A stretch of DNA of 14,807 bases from an uncultured Gammaproteobacteria bacterium (GTDB taxonomy: Bacteria; Patescibacteriota; Patescibacteriia; JACQSD01). Position numbers and translations under genes: made by a program. Each line of letters begins with the position of its first letter. Position 1 is the stretch's first letter. This document shows positions 5,371-14,807 of this stretch, piece after piece. Location: assembly GCA_964358625.1 (NCBI GenBank), contig CAYHPG010000010.1:1-14807 (forward strand), written 5' to 3'. The notes below the pieces were generated by a model. It did no database searches. It worked only from the letters and a program-made list of their open reading frames with translations, and was not told where the DNA came from.

Positions 5371-5412
5371 CTGTCTTCACTGTCTTCACTGTCTTCACTG
5401 TCTTCACTGTCC
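5371..5412 (+). repeat. tandem repeat, 9-bp unit ctgtcttca x4 plus partial ctgtcc, ending immediately at the cysS ATG
   Basis: Read directly: ctgtcttca at 5371, 5380, 5389 and 5398, then ctgtcc at 5407-5412, then ATG at 5413. Confidence 0.92.
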
Positions 5413-6852
5413 ATGCTTCGTTTTTACAATACATTAACTCATAAGAAAGAAGTATTCGTACCGATGCGCGAAGGACGCGTCGGTCTTTATACCTGCGGGC
5501 CGACCGTCTACAACTACGCGCACATCGGTAATTTGCGTACGTACATTTTTGAAGATGTGCTTCGACGCGTGCTTGAATACACAGGATTGCATGTCACGCA
5601 CGTCATGAATATAACGGATGTAGGGCACCTCACGTCAGATGCAGACACCGGTGAGGACAAAATGGAGAAGGGCGCGCGGCGAGAAAAGAAAACCGTCTGG
5701 GAAATTGCGCAATTCTATACCGACCTTTTTAAAAAAGATATGGCAGCGCTTCATATTAAAGAGCCGACGATTTGGTGCAAGGCGACGGATCATATCAAAG
5801 AGCAAATTGATCTTATAAAACGCCTCGAAAAAAAAGGCTACACCTATACGACCCAAGACGGCGTCTATTTTGACACATTAAAATTTCCATCGTACGGAGC
5901 GCTCGCGCAATTAAATGTGAAAGGACAAAAAGCTGGTGCACGTGTAGAGATGGTGAAGGGTAAAAAAAATCTTGCGGATTTCGCGCTGTGGAAGTTCTCA
6001 AATCCGAATGGTAGTCCTTCGACGGGCTCAGGACATCTGCCGAGGCGGCAGATGGAATGGGCTTCTCCATGGGGAAAGGGCTTCCCCGGCTGGCATATTG
6101 AATGCAGTGCCATGGCGATGAAATATCTCGGCGAAGAGTTTGATATCCATACCGGTGGCATCGACCATATCCCGGTGCATCACACGAACGAAATCGCGCA
6201 AAGCGAGGCGGCAACAGGGCACGCGTTCGTGCGCTACTGGCTCCACGGAGAATATCTCATCGTCAATAGTCCCCCTCTTCATGTAAGAGGGGCAGGGGGA
6301 GTTATTGAAACTAAAATGGCGAAATCCGGAGAAAATTTCACGAGACTCCAAACGCTCACCGATCAACGCCACGATCCCCTCGCCTACCGATATTTCGCGC
6401 TCACCGCACACTACCGAAAACAACTCACCTTCTCATGGGAAGCGCTTGAAGCAGCGGAACAAGGACTAAAAAATCTTCGCGAACGACTTTTTGAAAGTGG
6501 TAATACAATTGGAGAACTCCCGAATACGATCAAGAAAAAATTTGGTGCAATCATCGGCAATGATCTCGATATGCCAAAAGCGATCGCATACCTCTGGGAA
6601 ATCGTCAAATCAAAAAAGTCGGGAGCCATAAAACGCGCCGCGGCGCAAGAATTCGATAAAATTTTCGCCCTAGATCTTCTTGCACACAAAGCCGAACCCG
6701 TACCGGAGCATGTGATGATTCTCGTGCGCGAACGCGAAGACGCGCGAAAAAATAAAGAGTGGCAAAAATCCGACGACCTGCGCAAACGCATCCTCGAGGA
6801 AGGGTGGGTTGTGGAGGATACTTCCCAAGGCTCGCATGTGAAGGCCGTTTGA
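5413..6852 (+). CDS. cysS: cysteine--tRNA ligase
   Basis: LYTCGPTVYNYAHIGNLRTY (HIGH motif), WHIECSAM, and KMAKS (the KMSKS motif). 479 aa. It carries two short GC-rich insertions (see repeat features). Confidence 0.95.
   Translation: MLRFYNTLTHKKEVFVPMREGRVGLYTCGPTVYNYAHIGNLRTYIFEDVLRRVLEYTGLHVTHVMNITDVGHLTSDADTGEDKMEKGARREKKTVWEIAQFYTDLFKKDMAALHIKEPTIWCKATDHIKEQIDLIKRLEKKGYTYTTQDGVYFDTLKFPSYGALAQLNVKGQKAGARVEMVKGKKNLADFALWKFSNPNGSPSTGSGHLPRRQMEWASPWGKGFPGWHIECSAMAMKYLGEEFDIHTGGIDHIPVHHTNEIAQSEAATGHAFVRYWLHGEYLIVNSPPLHVRGAGGVIETKMAKSGENFTRLQTLTDQRHDPLAYRYFALTAHYRKQLTFSWEALEAAEQGLKNLRERLFESGNTIGELPNTIKKKFGAIIGNDLDMPKAIAYLWEIVKSKKSGAIKRAAAQEFDKIFALDLLAHKAEPVPEHVMILVREREDARKNKEWQKSDDLRKRILEEGWVVEDTSQGSHVKAV
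6014..6054 (+). repeat. in-frame GC-rich insertion in cysS: diverged copy of the PSTSSGQ 22-mer followed by a 9-bp-stem hairpin
   Basis: gtccttcgacgggctcaggaca (6014-6035) matches the reverse complement of the dnaK/grpE 22-mer at 17 of 22 positions and encodes SPSTGSGH. catctgccg-agg-cggcagatg (6034-6054) is an inverted repeat whose right arm encodes the RQM of the ..RRQMEWASPWG.. stretch, which I take to be native sequence. Confidence 0.6.
6268..6303 (+). repeat. in-frame hairpin insertion in cysS directly before KMSKS (encodes SPPLHVRGAGGV)
   Basis: cccctctt (6272-6279) catgt aagagggg (6285-6292) followed by caggggga. It has the same architecture as the intergenic CCCTC..GAGGG hairpins at 6971-7018, 9357-9379, 9427-9447 and 9851-9871. 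Confidence 0.6.
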
Positions 6853-6970: not shown

Positions 6971-7018
6971 TAACCCCACCCTTCCTCCCCTTATATAAGG
7001 GGAGGTGAGGAGGGGTTA
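6971..7018. repeat. 48-bp imperfect palindrome (core cctccccttatataaggggagg) upstream of dus
   Basis: taacccc..cctcccctta|taaggggagg..ggggtta. The outer 7 bp and the inner 10 bp of the two arms are perfectly complementary. Confidence 0.7.
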
Positions 7019-7033
7019 TATTCGTAAACGCTT

Positions 7034-8032
7034 ATGAATTTTTGGACAACACTCACAAAACCCATCCTTGCTCTCGCGCCGATGGCGGGGGTGACGGATG
7101 CCGCATTTCGCCCGCTCGTGAAGAGTTATGGCGCGGATGTTATCTACACCGAATTCGCCTCAACGCACGCGCTCATCCACGGCAACGAAGCAACGCGCCG
7201 CATGATTGGCTTTGAACCGGAAGAACAACCGGTCGTGTGTCAGCTTTTCGGCAATGAGCCGGATAAATTTGCCGAGTCTGCAAAAATTTTGGAGTCATTG
7301 GGCTTTGCCGGTGTGGACATCAACTTCGGTTGTCCCGCATATAAAGTCGTCACTCATGGCGGCGGAGTTGTGCTCATGAAAGAGCCAGAGCAGTGCAGAA
7401 AAATCGTCGAGGCAACCTGCAACGCCATCAAAATCCCCGTCTCCGTAAAAATCCGCGCGAGCATCCGTTGCGATATACAAGGGGCACCCTTGTCGTCGAC
7501 AAGGGTGCCCCTTGTAACGGCGTGCGATCTCGTCAACCAAATCAAAGACCTCCCCGTCGCCGCGCTCATGATCCACGGCCGCTCGTATGAACAACCGTTC
7601 GACGGATGGCCCGATGTCTCAATGATCACCGCAGTCAAAAAAATCTTCCCCGGCATCCTCCTTGCGAATGGCGGCGTCCACACACCGGAAGATGCAAAAA
7701 AACTCTTAGACGAAACCGGCGCCGACGGCTTGGGTATCGCTCGCGGAAGCTGGGGCAAACCGTGGATCTTTCAACAAATCCGCGACTACCTCGCCACCGG
7801 TTCATATGTGAAGCCCACGTGGGATGAAATCGTCGCGGTCATTATCCGTCACGCGGAAATGGCAAAAAAATATAAATCAGCGCACGGATTCATCGAACTT
7901 CGCAAACACTTGGCGTGGTACGTCAAAGGCATTCAGCACGCATCGACACTGCGCCAACAACTCGTCCGCGTAAAGACGCTTGAAGAAATAATCGCCATCC
8001 TCCAAACCGTCCCTGCGCTTGCAAAAGTGTAG
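7034..8032 (+). CDS. dus: tRNA-dihydrouridine synthase
   Basis: LAPMAGVTDAAFR, VDINFGCP (catalytic Cys region), PVSVKIR and IHGRS. 332 aa. Confidence 0.9.
   Translation: MNFWTTLTKPILALAPMAGVTDAAFRPLVKSYGADVIYTEFASTHALIHGNEATRRMIGFEPEEQPVVCQLFGNEPDKFAESAKILESLGFAGVDINFGCPAYKVVTHGGGVVLMKEPEQCRKIVEATCNAIKIPVSVKIRASIRCDIQGAPLSSTRVPLVTACDLVNQIKDLPVAALMIHGRSYEQPFDGWPDVSMITAVKKIFPGILLANGGVHTPEDAKKLLDETGADGLGIARGSWGKPWIFQQIRDYLATGSYVKPTWDEIVAVIIRHAEMAKKYKSAHGFIELRKHLAWYVKGIQHASTLRQQLVRVKTLEEIIAILQTVPALAKV
7477..7515. repeat. perfect 39-nt palindrome inside the dus CDS, in frame (13 codons)
   Basis: acaaggggcacccttgtcg-t-cgacaagggtgccccttgt has 19-bp arms that are exact reverse complements. Each arm is itself a 7-bp-stem hairpin (acaaggg-gca-cccttgt). 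It encodes ..IQGAPLSSTRVPLV.. Confidence 0.9.
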
Positions 8033-8194: not shown

Positions 8195-9286
8195 CTATAA
8201 CCCTTCTTTTTGTAATTGTTCCAACAAATCGCGCTGGCGACGACTCACATCTTTCGGTGTCCTCACCTGCACATGCACGAGATGATCACCTCTGCCGCCG
8301 GATTTCAAATGCGTCACGCCCTTTCCCTTCAAACGAAACTCCTGTCCTGCTTGCGTCCCTGCTGGAATTTTGAGCGCCACCACACCATCAACCGTCTCCA
8401 CATCAATGGTCGCTCCAAGTGCCGCTTGCGAAAAAGAAATACCCGCTTGCGAATGTAAATCATCGCCGTCGCGCTCAAATCGCGTATCCGTCGCAACCCG
8501 CACCGTTAAATACAAATCGCCCGCTTGCCCACCACGATCTCCTACCTCGCCTTCGCCCGTGAGTCGAATCGTCTGTCCATCAGCAATCCCTGCAGGAACT
8601 TTGACGCGCATCTTTCGCAATTCTTTTGCAACTCCTCCGCCACGACATTTTGAACAAACGGTTTCAAAGCGCTCGCCCTGCCCGCCGCATACCTCGCACG
8701 CGACAACGGTTTCTACTGTCCCCAGAAATGTCCGCTGTGCCTGACGCACTTGCCCCTGACCGCGACATGTTGTGCATGTCTTCACCGTACTTCCCGGCTC
8801 GGCGCCTTTCCCATGACAACGATCGCACGCCACCGTTTTCCATAACTCAATCTCTTTCTCAACACCAAAAACAGCATCATGAAATGTAATTTTTATATCT
8901 GCTTGAATATCACGTCCTTTCCGTGCACGTGATCGCGCTGTTCTCCGTCCGCCTCCGCCTCCAAATATTCCACCAAAAAGATCTCCAAGATCTTCGAAAT
9001 TCACGCCCATTCCCTCAGTAAATCCCGTAAAATCCCGAAACCCCTCAAAGCCACCCATCCCGCCTTGTGCCTGTGCCTGCTCAAACGTCGTGCCGTACTG
9101 ATCATACTGCTTCCTTTTGTCCGCGTCTGACAGCACCTGATACGCCTCGTTCACCTCTTTGAATTTTTTCGGATCGCCTCCTTTATCCGGATGCAACTCG
9201 TGCGCCAGCTTTCTAAATGCACGTTTAATCTCATCCTGCGATGCGGACTTCGAAACTCCTAATACATTGTAGTAATCCTTTGCCAT
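8195..9286 (-). CDS. dnaJ: molecular chaperone DnaJ
   Basis: J domain ([12 protein letters not shown]), a G/F-rich region, four CxxCxGxG zinc-finger repeats and the C-terminal substrate domain. 363 aa. Confidence 0.96.
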
Positions 9287-9330
9287 TTATTAACGAAACA
9301 CGAATGTATAACCTCCTCTCCCCTTGTGGG

Positions 9331-9472
9331 CTGTGAATTACGAAACTCTCTTTATTCCCTCTCCCTCAATGGGAGAGGGTTAGGGTGAGGGTGGAAATAA
9401 GGGGCTTTACACACCCTCCCCTTTGTCCCCTCCCATCAAGGGAGGGGAAAACCGGAGTTTCGTAATTCACAG
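9331..9472. mobile_element. MITE-like non-autonomous element, 142 bp, perfect 18-bp TIRs, 8-bp flanking direct repeat
   Basis: The TIRs are ctgtgaattacgaaactc (9331-9348) and gagtttcgtaattcacag (9455-9472). The direct repeat cttgtggg lies at 9323-9330 and 9473-9480. Internal hairpins are ccctctccc-tcaat-gggagaggg (9357-9379) and cccctccc-atcaa-gggagggg (9427-9447). There is no ORF. Confidence 0.7.
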
Positions 9473-9485
9473 CTTGTGGGAGAGG

Positions 9486-9833
9486 TTAGGGAGAGGGGAA
9501 AAGATGTTTATTAATTTCCTCACCTACTCCTTCGATATTTTTCAAAACATCATTATTCCAAAAACGGAGCACCGTAAATCCTTGATTCCGTAACCATTGA
9601 TCCCGCACTTGGTCTTTCAACGTATGTGTTTCCTCTGCATGTTGCCCGCCATCAAGTTCAATAACAATTTTTTTAGCGAAACAAACAAAATCAACAATGT
9701 AATCTCCAATAATCTCCTGTCGTCTAAATTTTAGTCCATGAAACTGTTTTGCTCTCAGATAATGCCACAACAATTTTTCTGCTTCGGTGGAATTTTTTCT
9801 AAGGTCTTTGGCAAAAGCAATGAGATGCTTCAT
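9486..9833 (-). CDS. DUF559 endonuclease-domain protein (Vsr-like restriction endonuclease fold), 115 aa
   Basis: From ATG 9833: MKHLIAFAKDLRKNSTEAEKLLWHYLRAKQFHGLKFRRQEIIGDYIVDFVCFAKKIVIELDGGQHAEE..RDQWLRNQGFTVLRFWNNDV. This is the characteristic DUF559 pattern. The longer ORF-track start (9902) would overlap dnaK and reads through a repeat. GGAGG lies 7 nt upstream of the 9833 ATG. Confidence 0.85.
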   Translation of the reverse strand: MKHLIAFAKDLRKNSTEAEKLLWHYLRAKQFHGLKFRRQEIIGDYIVDFVCFAKKIVIELDGGQHAEETHTLKDQVRDQWLRNQGFTVLRFWNNDVLKNIEGVGEEINKHLFPSP

Positions 9834-9850
9834 ACGACACCCTCCCCTCA

Positions 9851-9871
9851 CCCCTCCCATAAAGGGAGGGG
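9851..9871. repeat. hairpin repeat cccctccc-ataaa-gggagggg between the dnaK stop and the DUF559 start
   Basis: Read directly. It belongs to the same family as 9427-9447. The adjacent cctcccctca (9841-9850) completes the family's tail motif on the minus strand (tgaggggagg). Confidence 0.65.
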
Positions 9872-9873
9872 GA

Positions 9874-11739
9874 CTACTTCTTCTCCTTAAAATCAGCGTC
9901 AATCACATCACCAGACTTTGCGTCCTTTTTGTCATCATCTTTCTGCCCTGAGCTTGTCGAAGGGTTCGTTTTTTCCGCTTCCGCCGCGGCTTTATATAAA
10001 TCCCCGCCCACCTTCTGAATCGCCTCACCCAAAGCATCAACCGCTTTGCGCAACGCCGCCGCGTCACTGCCGTCTTTTGCCTTTTTCACCTCGACAATTT
10101 TTTCCTCAATCGGTTTCTTCACATCATCCTTCACTTTGTCGCCCGCGTCTTTCAATGTCTTCTCGGTCGTGTGAATAAGCGCATCCGCCTGATTGCGCAA
10201 ATCAATGAGTTCCTTCTTCTGCCGATCCTCGGTTGCATGCAGTTCCGCCTCTTTTTTCATCTTCTCGATTTCCTCTTTTGAAAGCGCGGAAGAATCTTTA
10301 ATCGTAATGTGCTGCGACTTCGCCGTTGCTTTATCTTTCGCGGTCACCGTCAAAATTCCGTTTGCATCAATGTCAAATGTCACTTCTACTTGCGGTACAC
10401 CACGCGCCGCCGGAGGAATGCCGTCCAAAATAAATCGCCCAAGCGTACGATTATCGCTCGCCATCGGCCGTTCTCCTTGTAATACATGAATCTCCACCGA
10501 AGTCTGGCTGTCCGCGGCCGTTGAAAATACTTGTGACTTCGATGTTGGAATCGTTGCGTTGCGCTCGATTAAGGGTGTCGAAACTCCACCCATTGTCTCA
10601 ATACCAAGTGTCAACGGCGTCACATCGAGCAAGAGCACGTCTTTTACGTCACCGGAGAGCACCGCCGCTTGCACTGCCGCGCCTTTTGCGACGCATTCCA
10701 TCGGATCCACCCCGCGCTCAATTTTCTTCCCGATAAAATCTTCCACGAATTTCTGGACAATCGGCATGCGCGTCGGACCACCGACCATAATCACTTTTTC
10801 GATTTTTGCCGGCGTCAACTTCGCGTCCGTAATTGCCTGCTCCATCGAATGACGGCATCGCTCCACGATCGGCTTCACAAGATCTTCCAATGTTGCGCGC
10901 GTCATCTTCATCGTCATGTGCTTCGGGCCGGATGCATCAGCGGTAATAAACGGCAAGTTGATTTCCGTTTCGAGTGTCGAAGACAATTCAATTTTCGCCT
11001 TCTCTCCTGCTTCTTTCAAGCGTTGCATTGCCATCGAGTCCTTACGCAAATCAATCCCTTCTTTTTTCTTAAACTCATCAGCGATATAGCCAATCATAGC
11101 GTTATCCATGTCCGTACCCCCGAGTTGCGTGTCTCCGGATGTTGATTGCACTTCAAAAACCCCTTCACCAAAATTCATGATCGTCACATCAAGTGTGCCG
11201 CCACCAAGATCAAACACCAGAACCATCTGATCTTTCTTGCCCTTTCCTGTTTTATCAAGACCATAGGACAACGATGCCGCGGTCGGTTCATTAATAATAC
11301 GCACGACTTCAAGACCAGCGATTGCGCCTGCATCTTTTGTTGCTTGGCGCTGTGCATCATTAAAGTACGCAGGAACGGTAATCACTGCTTTTTGTACTGG
11401 TTCACCCAAAAAGCTCTCCGCATCACGCTTGATTTTTTGCAAAATAAACGCGGAGATTTGTTGTGGCGTGTATTCTTTGTCGCCGATTTTCCACTTGAAA
11501 TCCGTTCCCATCTTCCGCTTTGCGGCGTAGATAGTGCGATCCGGGTTTGCCACAAGCTGACGCCGTGCGGGCTCACCAACTAAAAGTTCACCTTCTTTCG
11601 TAAACGCCACATATGAAGGGAACGCCTTCCCTCCAAGTGTTGCCCCTTCCGCAGACGGCACAATCACAGGACTATCGCCCTGCATGACCGCGGCCGCTGA
11701 ATTAGATGTTCCTAAATCGATTCCAATAATTTTGCTCAT
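9874..11739 (-). CDS. dnaK: molecular chaperone DnaK (Hsp70)
   Basis: [20 protein letters not shown] and a full-length Hsp70 architecture. 621 aa. Confidence 0.97.
9944..9965 (-). repeat. 22-mer tgccctgagcttgtcgaagggt inserted in the dnaK C-terminal tail (encodes PSTSSGQ)
   Basis: It is identical over 22 nt to 11930-11951 in grpE. It is in the same orientation relative to the host gene and in the same reading frame. Confidence 0.85.
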
Positions 11740-11820: not shown

Positions 11821-12381
11821 TTATTCTGCAATAATAACTTTTGGCGTAACAAACGATTTTCCGTGGAGCGTATAGCCCACACGCACTTCTTCTATAATCG
11901 TATCCGGTTCAATCTTTTTACTCTGCGCTTGCCCTGAGCTTGTCGAAGGGTCGATGGGCTTCTTTTTCCCTACCACTTCATCATGCATCGGGTCAAACTT
12001 TTTGCCCATCACGTCCATTCGCGCGACACCTGCTTTCTTCATAAAATCTTCAAAGCTCTTTTTTACTTGCGCCATACCCTTACCCCATGGCGTCTCTGCA
12101 ACTTCTTTTGGCATCTCCGCGCACGCTTTCATGAATGCTTCATACGTTGGTAGTAAGTCACGAAGAGTGCTCGTAACGGCAAAGATAATAAAATCAGTCC
12201 GTTGCCGCTCGATATCTTTCTCGCGATTCACAAAATCCGCTTTCGACCGCTTCCATCCGGTCAAATATTCATCTGCCTTCTTCTGGCATTTCTCCAATTC
12301 TTCTCGAAGCTTCTGCGCTTCTGGAGATTCAATTAATTTTTCCTCCGGCTGTTCAGATAAAAGTGCGTTAGTCATTGCCAT
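11821..12381 (-). CDS. grpE: nucleotide exchange factor GrpE
   Basis: 186 aa, lying between hrcA and dnaK. It has a coiled-coil N-terminus, then ..LLPTYEAF.., ..FDPMHDEVV.. and ..VRVGYTLHGKSFVTPKVII. Confidence 0.9.
   Translation of the reverse strand: MAMTNALLSEQPEEKLIESPEAQKLREELEKCQKKADEYLTGWKRSKADFVNREKDIERQRTDFIIFAVTSTLRDLLPTYEAFMKACAEMPKEVAETPWGKGMAQVKKSFEDFMKKAGVARMDVMGKKFDPMHDEVVGKKKPIDPSTSSGQAQSKKIEPDTIIEEVRVGYTLHGKSFVTPKVIIAE
11930..11951 (-). repeat. 22-mer tgccctgagcttgtcgaagggt inserted in grpE (encodes PSTSSGQ)
   Basis: Identical to 9944-9965. It lies between the FDPMHDEVV segment and the C-terminal beta domain. Confidence 0.85.
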
Positions 12382-14655: not shown

Positions 14656-14671
14656 GCGAGAGCGAAGGATC
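14646..14671. repeat. repeat of the gtcatcctgagcgagagcgaaggatc type, spanning the truD stop codon
   Basis: Read directly. The TGA at 14653-14655 lies inside the motif. The motif is related in form to gtcattgcgag..(6856, 8118). Confidence 0.55.
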
Positions 14672-14677
14672 CCCTGA

Positions 14678-14781
14678 CTGTGCATTACGAAACCCCCTTT
14701 TATATCCCCTCTCCCTCGATGGGAGAGGGTAGGGTGAGGGTGAAAATAGGGAGGGGAAAATCGGAGTTTCGTAATTCAAAG
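14678..14781. mobile_element. second, degenerate and internally deleted copy (104 bp) of the MITE-like element
   Basis: The TIRs are ctgtgcattacgaaac (14678-14693) and gagtttcgtaattcaaag (14764-14781), each one mismatch from copy 1. It shares the interior ccctctccc-tcgat-gggagaggg-t-agggtgagggtg (14707-14741). It lacks about 40 bp corresponding to 9401-9440 of copy 1. Confidence 0.6.
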
Positions 14782-14807
14782 CCCCTTGCTACGTGTATGA
14801 GATCCCT

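Follow-up and report, generated by a model that had tools for sequence, protein, structure and literature searches.

A 142-bp sequence at positions 9331-9472 of a 14,807-nucleotide stretch of contig CAYHPG010000010.1 (hereafter the window, meaning that whole stretch, which is the entire contig) is very probably a non-autonomous DNA transposon, a miniature inverted-repeat transposable element (MITE), of a family spread through Patescibacteria (Candidate Phyla Radiation, CPR). It lies between dnaJ and a gene for a DUF559 protein, and it shows the features of a MITE: small size, no transposase open reading frame (ORF), conserved terminal inverted repeats (TIRs), duplications that abut the termini, dispersed copies and empty sites. 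All genes flanking the element are on the minus strand, in an apparent transcription unit. The host lineage belongs to Patescibacteria, and the closest named homologue of its DnaJ (86% identity) is from Candidatus Uhrbacteria.

Structure of the element and its insertion site

We analysed the ends of the element (copy 1; coordinates in Table 1). As the preliminary description of this DNA had stated, and as can be read directly in the sequence, the TIRs are perfect: CTGTGAATTACGAAACTC is the exact reverse complement of GAGTTTCGTAATTCACAG at 18 of 18 positions, or over 19 if G9330 and C9473 are counted. A repeat search extended the pairing to 32 nt at 84% complementarity. The flanking duplication CTTGTGG(G) is 8 bp long (the 8-mer, register 6,6), or 7 bp when G9330 is counted as part of the element. 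The paired-terminus pattern had two matches in the window against 0 expected in shuffled sequences, which rules out chance. Internal ORFs are at most 34 aa long, and the predicted single-stranded DNA fold has an energy of -57.4 kcal/mol (z = -8.7 relative to shuffles).

Deletion of 9331-9480 restores CCTCTCCC-CTTGT-GGGAGAGG-TTA-GGGAGAGGGG, with TTAGGGAGAGGGG as the stretch after the hairpin. The hairpin that excision had been said to restore was thus confirmed, and it has an intact counterpart in the DUF559 cassettes of two other loci, L184 and L186 (see below). The loop TTA of this host module reads TAA on the minus strand, where it is the stop codon of the DUF559 gene.

The left junction recurs in a second, independent ENA assembly of this organism (L001, a 1.35-kb contig from Hainich well H43), and this contig ends within the element. 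The left junction is therefore not an assembly artefact. Both assemblies of the host organism break at or directly after a MITE copy (position 1 of L001 and position 14807, the end of the window).

A dispersed family with fixed-length target duplications

We scanned GTDB species representatives for sequences with both termini, ATTACGAAAC...GGG...GTTTCGTAATTC, a pattern for which we calculated about one chance match. The scan returned 65 copies at 59 loci in about 32 assemblies, almost all of them labelled Patescibacteria (Taylor-, Uhr-, Doudna-, Lipton-, Kerfeld- and Magasanikbacteria, plus bins labelled Saccharibacteria), and at least 11 of the loci came from a single Taylorbacteria metagenome-assembled genome (MAG). 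The copies are 97-142 bp long, have differing flanks and are dispersed in unrelated contexts. Hence the element is neither unique in its genome and relatives nor confined to identical contexts, either of which would have pointed to a local event.

The family termini can be written C(T/C)TTGAATTACGAAAC(TC), the outer 16 nt being near-invariant at both ends of the 65 copies. Conservation is limited to positions -6 to +10, and the interiors are unrelated between lineages. Tabulation of the flanks, as had been proposed, revealed exact 7-bp duplications in the fixed register in 24 of the 65 copies, compared with 2 of 1495 when the right flank was shifted and 4 of 4160 when flanks were permuted. The family norm is thus 7 bp; an 8-bp duplication was found in two of the 65 copies, copy 1 of the window among them. 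The duplicated sequence is AT-rich (25% GC, the loci as such having 45%); its first base is T and its seventh is A (T-N5-A).

The two window copies belong to a G-rich-cargo subfamily (pattern GGGAGGGGAAAAYCGGAGTTTCGTAATTC). A metagenome scan for this subfamily yielded one more copy, L190, whose cargo is the same and which is flanked by a perfect duplication of 7 bp, CTCCTTA. Copies in other lineages have these termini around entirely different palindromes: TGTCATTCCCGCGCAGGCGGGAATC..., TGTCATTGCGAG...CTCGCAATGACA, CCCTGAGC..GTCGAAGGG, GGGGTCTAACC..GGTTAGACCCC and GGCAGGGCTTTTGCGGAACA.... Several of these interior types are also found free-standing outside MITEs in the fetched loci, some of them in the loci of other genomes. 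Since interiors differ by lineage while the termini stay the same, the family behaves like a set of minimal termini with an exchangeable palindromic insert.

Some of the loci deserve separate mention. A degenerate Taylorbacteria copy at about 3585-3770 of L047 has termini with A for G (ATGAATTACAAAAC) and an extra G-rich hairpin (CCTCTTCCCCTCTTTAGAGGGGAAG) nested within the usual interior. Copies L019 (DAOSDI010000003.1) and L042 (CAYJWS010000003.1) are in bins labelled Pacearchaeota and Gammaproteobacteria, respectively. The Pacearchaeota label of L019 is doubtful, because this locus encodes a bacterial-type class I GAPDH and AcsA, and we therefore rejected an archaeal host range; the ORFs of L042 had no family matches.

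A second copy and empty sites

The second copy in the window, at the far end of the contig, had been overlooked in the preliminary description. In a three-way alignment it has a 40-column gap relative to copy 1, most of the second cargo module (module B) being gone. It sits in the central loop of a different palindromic repeat of about 100 nt (GTGTCATCCTGAGCGA...), and the contig ends 26 nt past it. Its flanking 7-mers are 5/7 identical.

A syntenic relative, L061 (DnaJ 93% identical; gene order truD-hrcA-grpE-dnaK...dnaJ-dus-cysS-corA), reads GAAGGAT-CCCATGG-CTACGTG downstream of truD, where the window reads GAAGGAT-CCCCTGA-[MITE]-CCCCTTG-CTACGTG. L061 thus carries the orthologous empty site for copy 2, whose flanks are a slightly decayed 7-bp duplication. 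The 10-nt terminal core had no exact match in the 21 kb of L061; four matches with one mismatch are at chance level.

For copy 1 the comparison is paralogous. The DUF559 homologues in L184 (76% identical) and L186 (77%) end in an uninterrupted CCCCTCTCCCTAACCCTCTCCC-ACAAG-GGGAGAGGG, in which the loop ACAAG is the reverse complement of CTTGT. The reconstructed hairpin is therefore intact in paralogous cassettes, which we take, by their sequence, as a paralogous empty site for copy 1. The empty site is thus orthologous for copy 2 and only paralogous for copy 1.

The spacer between dnaK and dnaJ is hypervariable among close relatives. It measures 587 bp in the window (9287-9873, with DUF559 and the MITE), 440 bp in L061 (9561-10000, with an unrelated 78-aa Cys-rich ORF and a palindrome), 116 bp in L062 (468-583) and 72 bp in L063 (6372-6443), the latter two with other repeats.

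The interior corresponds to a known triplex motif

The interior of copy 1 consists of two hairpin-plus-tail modules, A and B, in inverted orientation. Positions 9357-9391 match exactly the type A consensus of TM_ECO, with 0 matches expected in shuffles. TM_ECO is an intrastrand triplex motif (TM) with the consensus CCCTCNCCC-N3-6-GGGNGAGGG-N3-GGGNGAGGG (Holder et al. 2015, PMC4666352), described earlier by Hoyne et al. 2000 (as cited in PMC4666352). It was reported in over 260 genomes; E. coli K-12 has 23 copies, which are always intergenic and in five cases form inverted A+B pairs; no association with transposons, phages, plasmids or further mobility functions was seen, nor were transposase or integrase remnants found nearby (PMC4666352). 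In its account of the E. coli TM sequence, the same paper presents the triple helix as demonstrated in vitro by circular dichroism and nuclear magnetic resonance.

Close variants of TM_ECO are found in the host hairpin (one base shorter, with the same TTA second loop), in module B, in the module at 9838-9872 and in copy 2. On the strength of these matches, the hairpin and G-tail unit of the window corresponds to TM_ECO and is a predicted triplex, an identity that the preliminary description had not recognised. We thus observed that TM occurs in CPR genomes. The TM module alone, never with the MITE termini, matched 275 records of plasmids or secondary replicons in Proteobacteria and Cyanobacteria; among them, one from Azospirillum has an intergenic, gene-less inverted TM pair.

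TM-like and similar modules are also present in coding sequences of the window. In cysS (5413-6852), a TM-like module at 6272-6301, CCCCTCTT-CATGT-AAGAGGGG-CAGGGGGAG, encodes a 12-aa in-frame insertion, SPPLHVRGAGGV, directly before the KMAKSG (KMSKS) loop; the insertion is missing from the 80%-identical CysS of L061. An exact 22-nt repeat, TGCCCTGAGCTTGTCGAAGGGT, occurs at 9944-9965 (the dnaK C-terminal tail, where it is read PSTSSGQ) and at 11930-11951 (grpE), and this motif forms the interior of MITE copies L042 and L060. CysS has PSTGSG where L061 has PELAEG, which may be two orientations of the TGCCCTGAGCTTGTCGAAGGGT motif. Between cysS and dus, a symmetric G-rich palindrome at 6971-7018 (TAACCCCACCCTTCCTCCCCTTAT/ATAAGGGGAGGTGAGGAGGGGTTA) forms a TM-like hairpin with G-tails on both strands; it is 91% identical over 35 nt to the interior of the Liptonbacteria MITE copy L014.

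TM modules bracket DUF559 genes

The DUF559 gene product of the window matched the Pfam model PF04480 with E = 2.6e-42 and 143.5 bits (cut-off 20.6) over profile positions 3-108 of 109. The gene is bracketed by inverted TM modules: the 5' module supplies GGAGG, and the 3' module, the host of copy 1, supplies the TAA stop within CCCTAACC. Cassettes were delimited at 9486-9872 in the window, 2959-3372 in L184, 2965-3375 in L186, 2966-3378 in L187 and 140-620 in L196. The three CPR genomes L184, L186 and L187 show the same bracketing in unrelated contexts. The end of the 5' module is 1-4 nt upstream of the ATG in all four CPR cassettes (GGAGG is present in the window, L184 and L186), and the stop codon of DUF559 lies inside the 3' TM module. 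The MITE cargo has the same inverted architecture of hairpin and G-tail as these four cassettes, minus the gene.

Module B is 92% identical over 38 nt to the 5' flank of the DUF559 genes in L184 and L185, and the MITE interior as a whole matches the DUF559 flanks of these loci at 92% over 38-39 nt. The family relationship that had been suggested between the MITE and the DUF559 flanks therefore holds for the cargo, a gene-less TM pair of the same repeat family and the same inverted architecture; it does not extend to the outer transposon, which is unrelated to that pair.

Outside CPR, the DUF559 homologue of Picosynechococcus PCC 7002 is bracketed by a lineage-specific G5 variant, and that of Azospirillum has a 5' module only. 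In E. coli K-12, the DUF559 gene ycjD (L194, NC_000913.3 1351029-1351839) ends in SPSP*, encoded by CCCTCTCCCTGA, and is followed within about 170 nt by a duplicated remnant of its 3' end and by TM_ECO #9. About 38 of the 60 closest DUF559 homologues (30 by script, about 8 by eye) end in PSP* or read through into PSPNPSHQGRG-type peptides, which are the translated C-rich strand of the TM module. The homologues are 57-80% identical across many phyla. The 2015 TM paper (PMC4666352) does not mention DUF559, and our literature searches found nothing on DUF559 as a mobile cassette.

These arrangements raise the tentative possibility, which we put forward with some doubt, that a selfish cassette with the gene for the DUF559 nuclease (Vsr-like, PD-(D/E)XK) moves horizontally and has TM repeats as its terminal structures. 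The gene-bearing form would be [hairpin+G-tail]-ATG...DUF559...stop-[C-tail+hairpin], and the gene-less TM pairs (E. coli K-12, Azospirillum and the MITE interior) would be its empty or non-autonomous form, serving either as the nuclease target in homing or as transposition ends. On this view, the CPR MITE would serve as the carrier by which a captured TM pair is dispersed, one copy having landed in the TM terminus of a full cassette.

Two repeats of other kinds were noted in the window. Just upstream of cysS, at 5371-5406, four units of the 9-mer CTGTCTTCA form a perfect tandem array, and in the dus coding region, at 7476-7516, the 20-nt arms of a perfect inverted repeat (TACAAGGGGCACCCTTGTCG/CGACAAGGGTGCCCCTTGTA) are separated by 1 nt.

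Table 1. Coordinates of the MITE copies, the TM modules and neighbouring genes in the window
Feature	Positions	Strand	Sequence	Remarks
Left TIR, copy 1	9331-9348	+	CTGTGAATTACGAAACTC	family-conserved core 9331-9346
Right TIR, copy 1	9455-9472	-	GAGTTTCGTAATTCACAG	sequence as read on + strand
Target-site duplication, copy 1, left	9323-9330		CTTGTGGG	spans hairpin loop CTTGT and first 3 nt of right arm; abuts terminus directly
Target-site duplication, copy 1, right	9473-9480		CTTGTGGG	abuts terminus directly
Cargo module A	9357-9394	+	CCCTCTCCC-TCAAT-GGGAGAGGG-TTA-GGGTGAGGG(TGG)
Cargo spacer	9395-9411			about 17-20 nt between inward-pointing G-tails; position of the DUF559 gene in gene-bearing cassettes
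Cargo module B, inverted	9412-9447	-	CCCCTCCC-TTGAT-GGGAGGGG-ACAAA-GGGGAGGGTG
Host hairpin, left arm	9315-9322	+	CCTCTCCC	first duplex of the TM module that is the 3' boundary of the DUF559 cassette
Host TM module, remainder	9478-9498	+	GGGAGAGG, TTA, GGGAGAGGGG	right arm, loop, third strand
Host site of copy 1, uninterrupted			CCTCTCCCCTTGTGGGAGAGG	predicted reading
Second MITE copy	14678-14781	+		104 bp; downstream of truD; same subfamily cargo
Duplication, copy 2, left	14671-14677		CCCCTGA	decayed
Duplication, copy 2, right	14782-14788		CCCCTTG	decayed
5' TM module of DUF559 cassette	9838-9872	-	CCCCCTCCC-TTTAT-GGGAGGGG-TGAGGGGAGGGTG	ends 4 nt before ATG
DUF559 (PF04480) gene	9486-9833	-		115 aa from MKHLIAF; between inverted TM modules, inserted between dnaK and dnaJ
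dnaJ	8195-9286	-		element region lies between dnaJ and DUF559
hrcA-grpE-dnaK-DUF559-dnaJ		-		gene order
truD		+

Proposed mechanism and alternative explanations

The notion of a non-coding transposable element mobilised in trans, already put forward from the window alone, is supported by the short internal ORFs, the 65 copies, their duplications and the empty site of copy 2. We propose that the termini (16-19 bp) are the binding sites of a DDE-type transposase, which would be supplied in trans and act as a dimer. The duplication would arise from target cuts with a stagger of 7 nt (occasionally 8) and from the subsequent repair of the gaps, and the palindromic T-N5-A preference fits a symmetric transposase dimer. 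Copy 1 landed in loop 1 of the TM module that bounds the DUF559 cassette, between dnaK and dnaJ. Its interior is an inverted TM pair, a gene-less version of the DUF559 cassette, and not transposon backbone, and the composite of termini and TM pair predates at least three transpositions, those of the two window copies and of L190. The landing in a TM loop was probably incidental, in intergenic space crowded with such repeats, rather than a matter of targeting.

Several observations weigh against parts of this explanation. No autonomous element or transposase gene with these termini was found in the 59 loci (up to 8 kb each), and a scan of IMG/VR with a 14-mer gave only chance single matches and no autonomous element; the search for a transposase gene with matching TIRs, which had been proposed earlier, thus yielded none in these collections. 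As no autonomous element was found, the DDE mechanism and the superfamily are inferred only from the TIRs and the fixed-length duplication. About half of the copies have at least 3 mismatches between the flanking 7-mers in the standard register, some of them being decayed or having a register of 6 or 8 bp. The relatives L061, L062 and L063 (DnaJ 93%, 86% and 79% identical) offer no exact orthologous empty site for copy 1, because they lack the whole DUF559 cassette and have unrelated sequence in the dnaK-dnaJ spacer. The order of events may be either way, the TM pair having entered an existing MITE or the termini having been gained around a TM pair. Finally, inverted repeats flank each of the three copies in the G-rich-cargo subfamily, so a local structural preference of this subfamily is possible.

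Candidates for an autonomous partner were considered and rejected. The solitary termini seen in L007, L017, L050 and L055 belong to degenerate or truncated copies that have no transposase; relaxed long-range pairing of TIRs gave only combinations of separate MITEs; and a recurrent 744-bp spacing in IMG/VR proved, in L115, to be phage coding sequence.

An alternative that we regard as quite possible, without preferring it, reverses the nesting: the TIR element would be an inert short backbone, and the palindromic modules would be the mobile entities, which repeatedly invaded MITE interiors. This would account for interiors that are wholly different by lineage and in several types also free-standing repeats, for the module that directly abuts the 16-nt terminus in L009 and L040, for the L047 copy with an extra G-rich hairpin inside the usual interior, and for the TM-like module in frame inside cysS. 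However, it only reorders events and leaves the outer element a MITE. Moreover, the same composite of termini and TM pair is found at three different sites and therefore moved as a unit, via the outer termini, once the cargo was present.

It is unlikely that the transposase or the hairpin cargo steers the element into the loops of cargo-like hairpins or TM modules. The preliminary description had suggested such structure- or sequence-directed targeting from copy 1, which lies in the loop of a TM hairpin with an 8-9-bp stem and which is, among 64 copies tested, the most extreme loop case. Copy 2 is in the centre of its palindromic repeat, and L190 is flanked by GATATTC and GAATATC. As a property of the family, however, targeting found no support: a perfect stem of at least 7 bp across the reconstructed empty site was seen in 12% of copies versus 8% of non-ORF positions (Fisher p = 0.19), and versus the same 8% of AT-rich T-N5-A positions outside ORFs (Fisher p = 0.15). 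An apparent loop excess of 11% versus 3%, obtained with random positions as the control, overstated the effect, as it was not significant against the non-ORF and target-matched controls. The targets of the family are AT-rich T-N5-A 7-mers. We rate targeting low because there is no family-wide excess, the three host palindromes are unrelated in sequence (only one of them resembles the cargo), and intergenic DNA of this contig is crowded with palindromic repeats.

We consider it very improbable that the sequence, instead of being mobile, serves mainly as a structured RNA or as a regulatory signal (stabiliser, terminator or attenuator) for the dnaK-DUF559-dnaJ operon. Its position inside an apparent transcription unit and its very stable fold would suit such a role. 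However, no promoter or terminator consensus was found inside the element in a scan of 9200-9950, and an Rfam scan of the whole window with E up to 1 returned six matches only, all sub-threshold and none credible; four of them overlap the element (three eukaryotic microRNA models and one small RNA model, below gathering scores), and membership of an Rfam RNA family was therefore ruled out. Furthermore, conservation is confined to the termini and duplications, the interior not being conserved, and relatives are without the element at this locus. The hairpin of the element may nevertheless have an effect on the dnaK-DUF559-dnaJ transcript.

Finally, local duplication, slippage, repair or misassembly without transposition, to which self-similar G/C-rich palindromes that could mis-align and the assembly breaks at or after an element copy might point, is practically out of the question and was refuted by the 65 copies with the same 16-nt termini in unrelated contexts of about 32 assemblies, by fixed-register 7-bp duplications far above controls, by the orthologous empty site and by the independent assembly with the same junction.

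Relation to known elements

Bacterial MITEs include Correia/NEMIS in Neisseria, RUP in Streptococcus and Nezha in cyanobacteria. The window family resembles them in being about 100-140 bp long and non-coding, with TIRs and a duplication, dispersed, mostly intergenic copies, a long hairpin and presence/absence polymorphism. It differs in its termini (CTTTGAATTACGAAAC), its 7-bp T-N5-A duplication and its Patescibacteria hosts, and in the wholesale replacement of its interior between lineages by other repeat families. Correia/NEMIS elements have a TA duplication and a Neisseria-type 26-bp TIR; the 7-bp T-N5-A duplication and the different termini exclude the window family from that group. We know of no parent insertion sequence (IS) for the family. 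Duplication lengths of 7-8 bp in IS4/ISPepr1, 7-9 bp in IS1595/IS1016 and 6-7 bp in ISNCY/ISDol1 are leads only, as duplication length alone assigns no IS family.

Repetitive extragenic palindromic (REP) sequences and BIMEs, which are mobilised by RAYT, and palindromic elements derived from IS200/IS605 do not have TIRs with duplications and depend on a Y1 (HUH) transposase. As short intergenic palindromes, often in inverted pairs, they are nearer to the cargo and the other interiors than to the outer element, which has both TIRs and duplications and is thus not a member of either group. No RAYT or TnpA(Y1) gene was found among the ten window ORFs scanned. The palindromic elements of Rickettsia lie in frame within genes, as the modules in the conserved genes cysS, dnaK and grpE of the window do; the likeness concerns modules of the cargo type, not the TIR element, and there is no sequence relationship.

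Compared with TM_ECO in E. coli K-12, the cargo fits the consensus exactly and is an inverted pair like the five K-12 pairs. Unlike there, the pair travels within a genuine transposon, DUF559 genes are bracketed by TM modules, and not every TM-like module is intergenic, the one in cysS being in frame.

As a kind, the element is an ordinary MITE. Its termini and its family were previously undescribed in the literature text searches, in agreement with the earlier statement that no described element with these termini was known, and the same searches returned no report of MITEs in Patescibacteria or CPR; ISfinder and Dfam were outside these searches.

Implications

The results point to an active-looking DNA transposon family common to many CPR lineages. 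Its 16-nt terminus is kept in MAGs of Taylor-, Uhr-, Doudna-, Lipton-, Kerfeld- and Magasanikbacteria, which may reflect either a transposase that they share or horizontal spread. The design of the family is unusual in its modularity, with minimal termini and an interchangeable palindromic insert. The family links the functionally unexplained TM motif with a genuine mobile element and with DUF559 genes, which TM modules bracket in CPR and in a cyanobacterium, and which they accompany on one side at E. coli ycjD and in Azospirillum. The spread of TM, and what acts on it, can thus be put to the test by asking whether DUF559 binds or cleaves TM structures.

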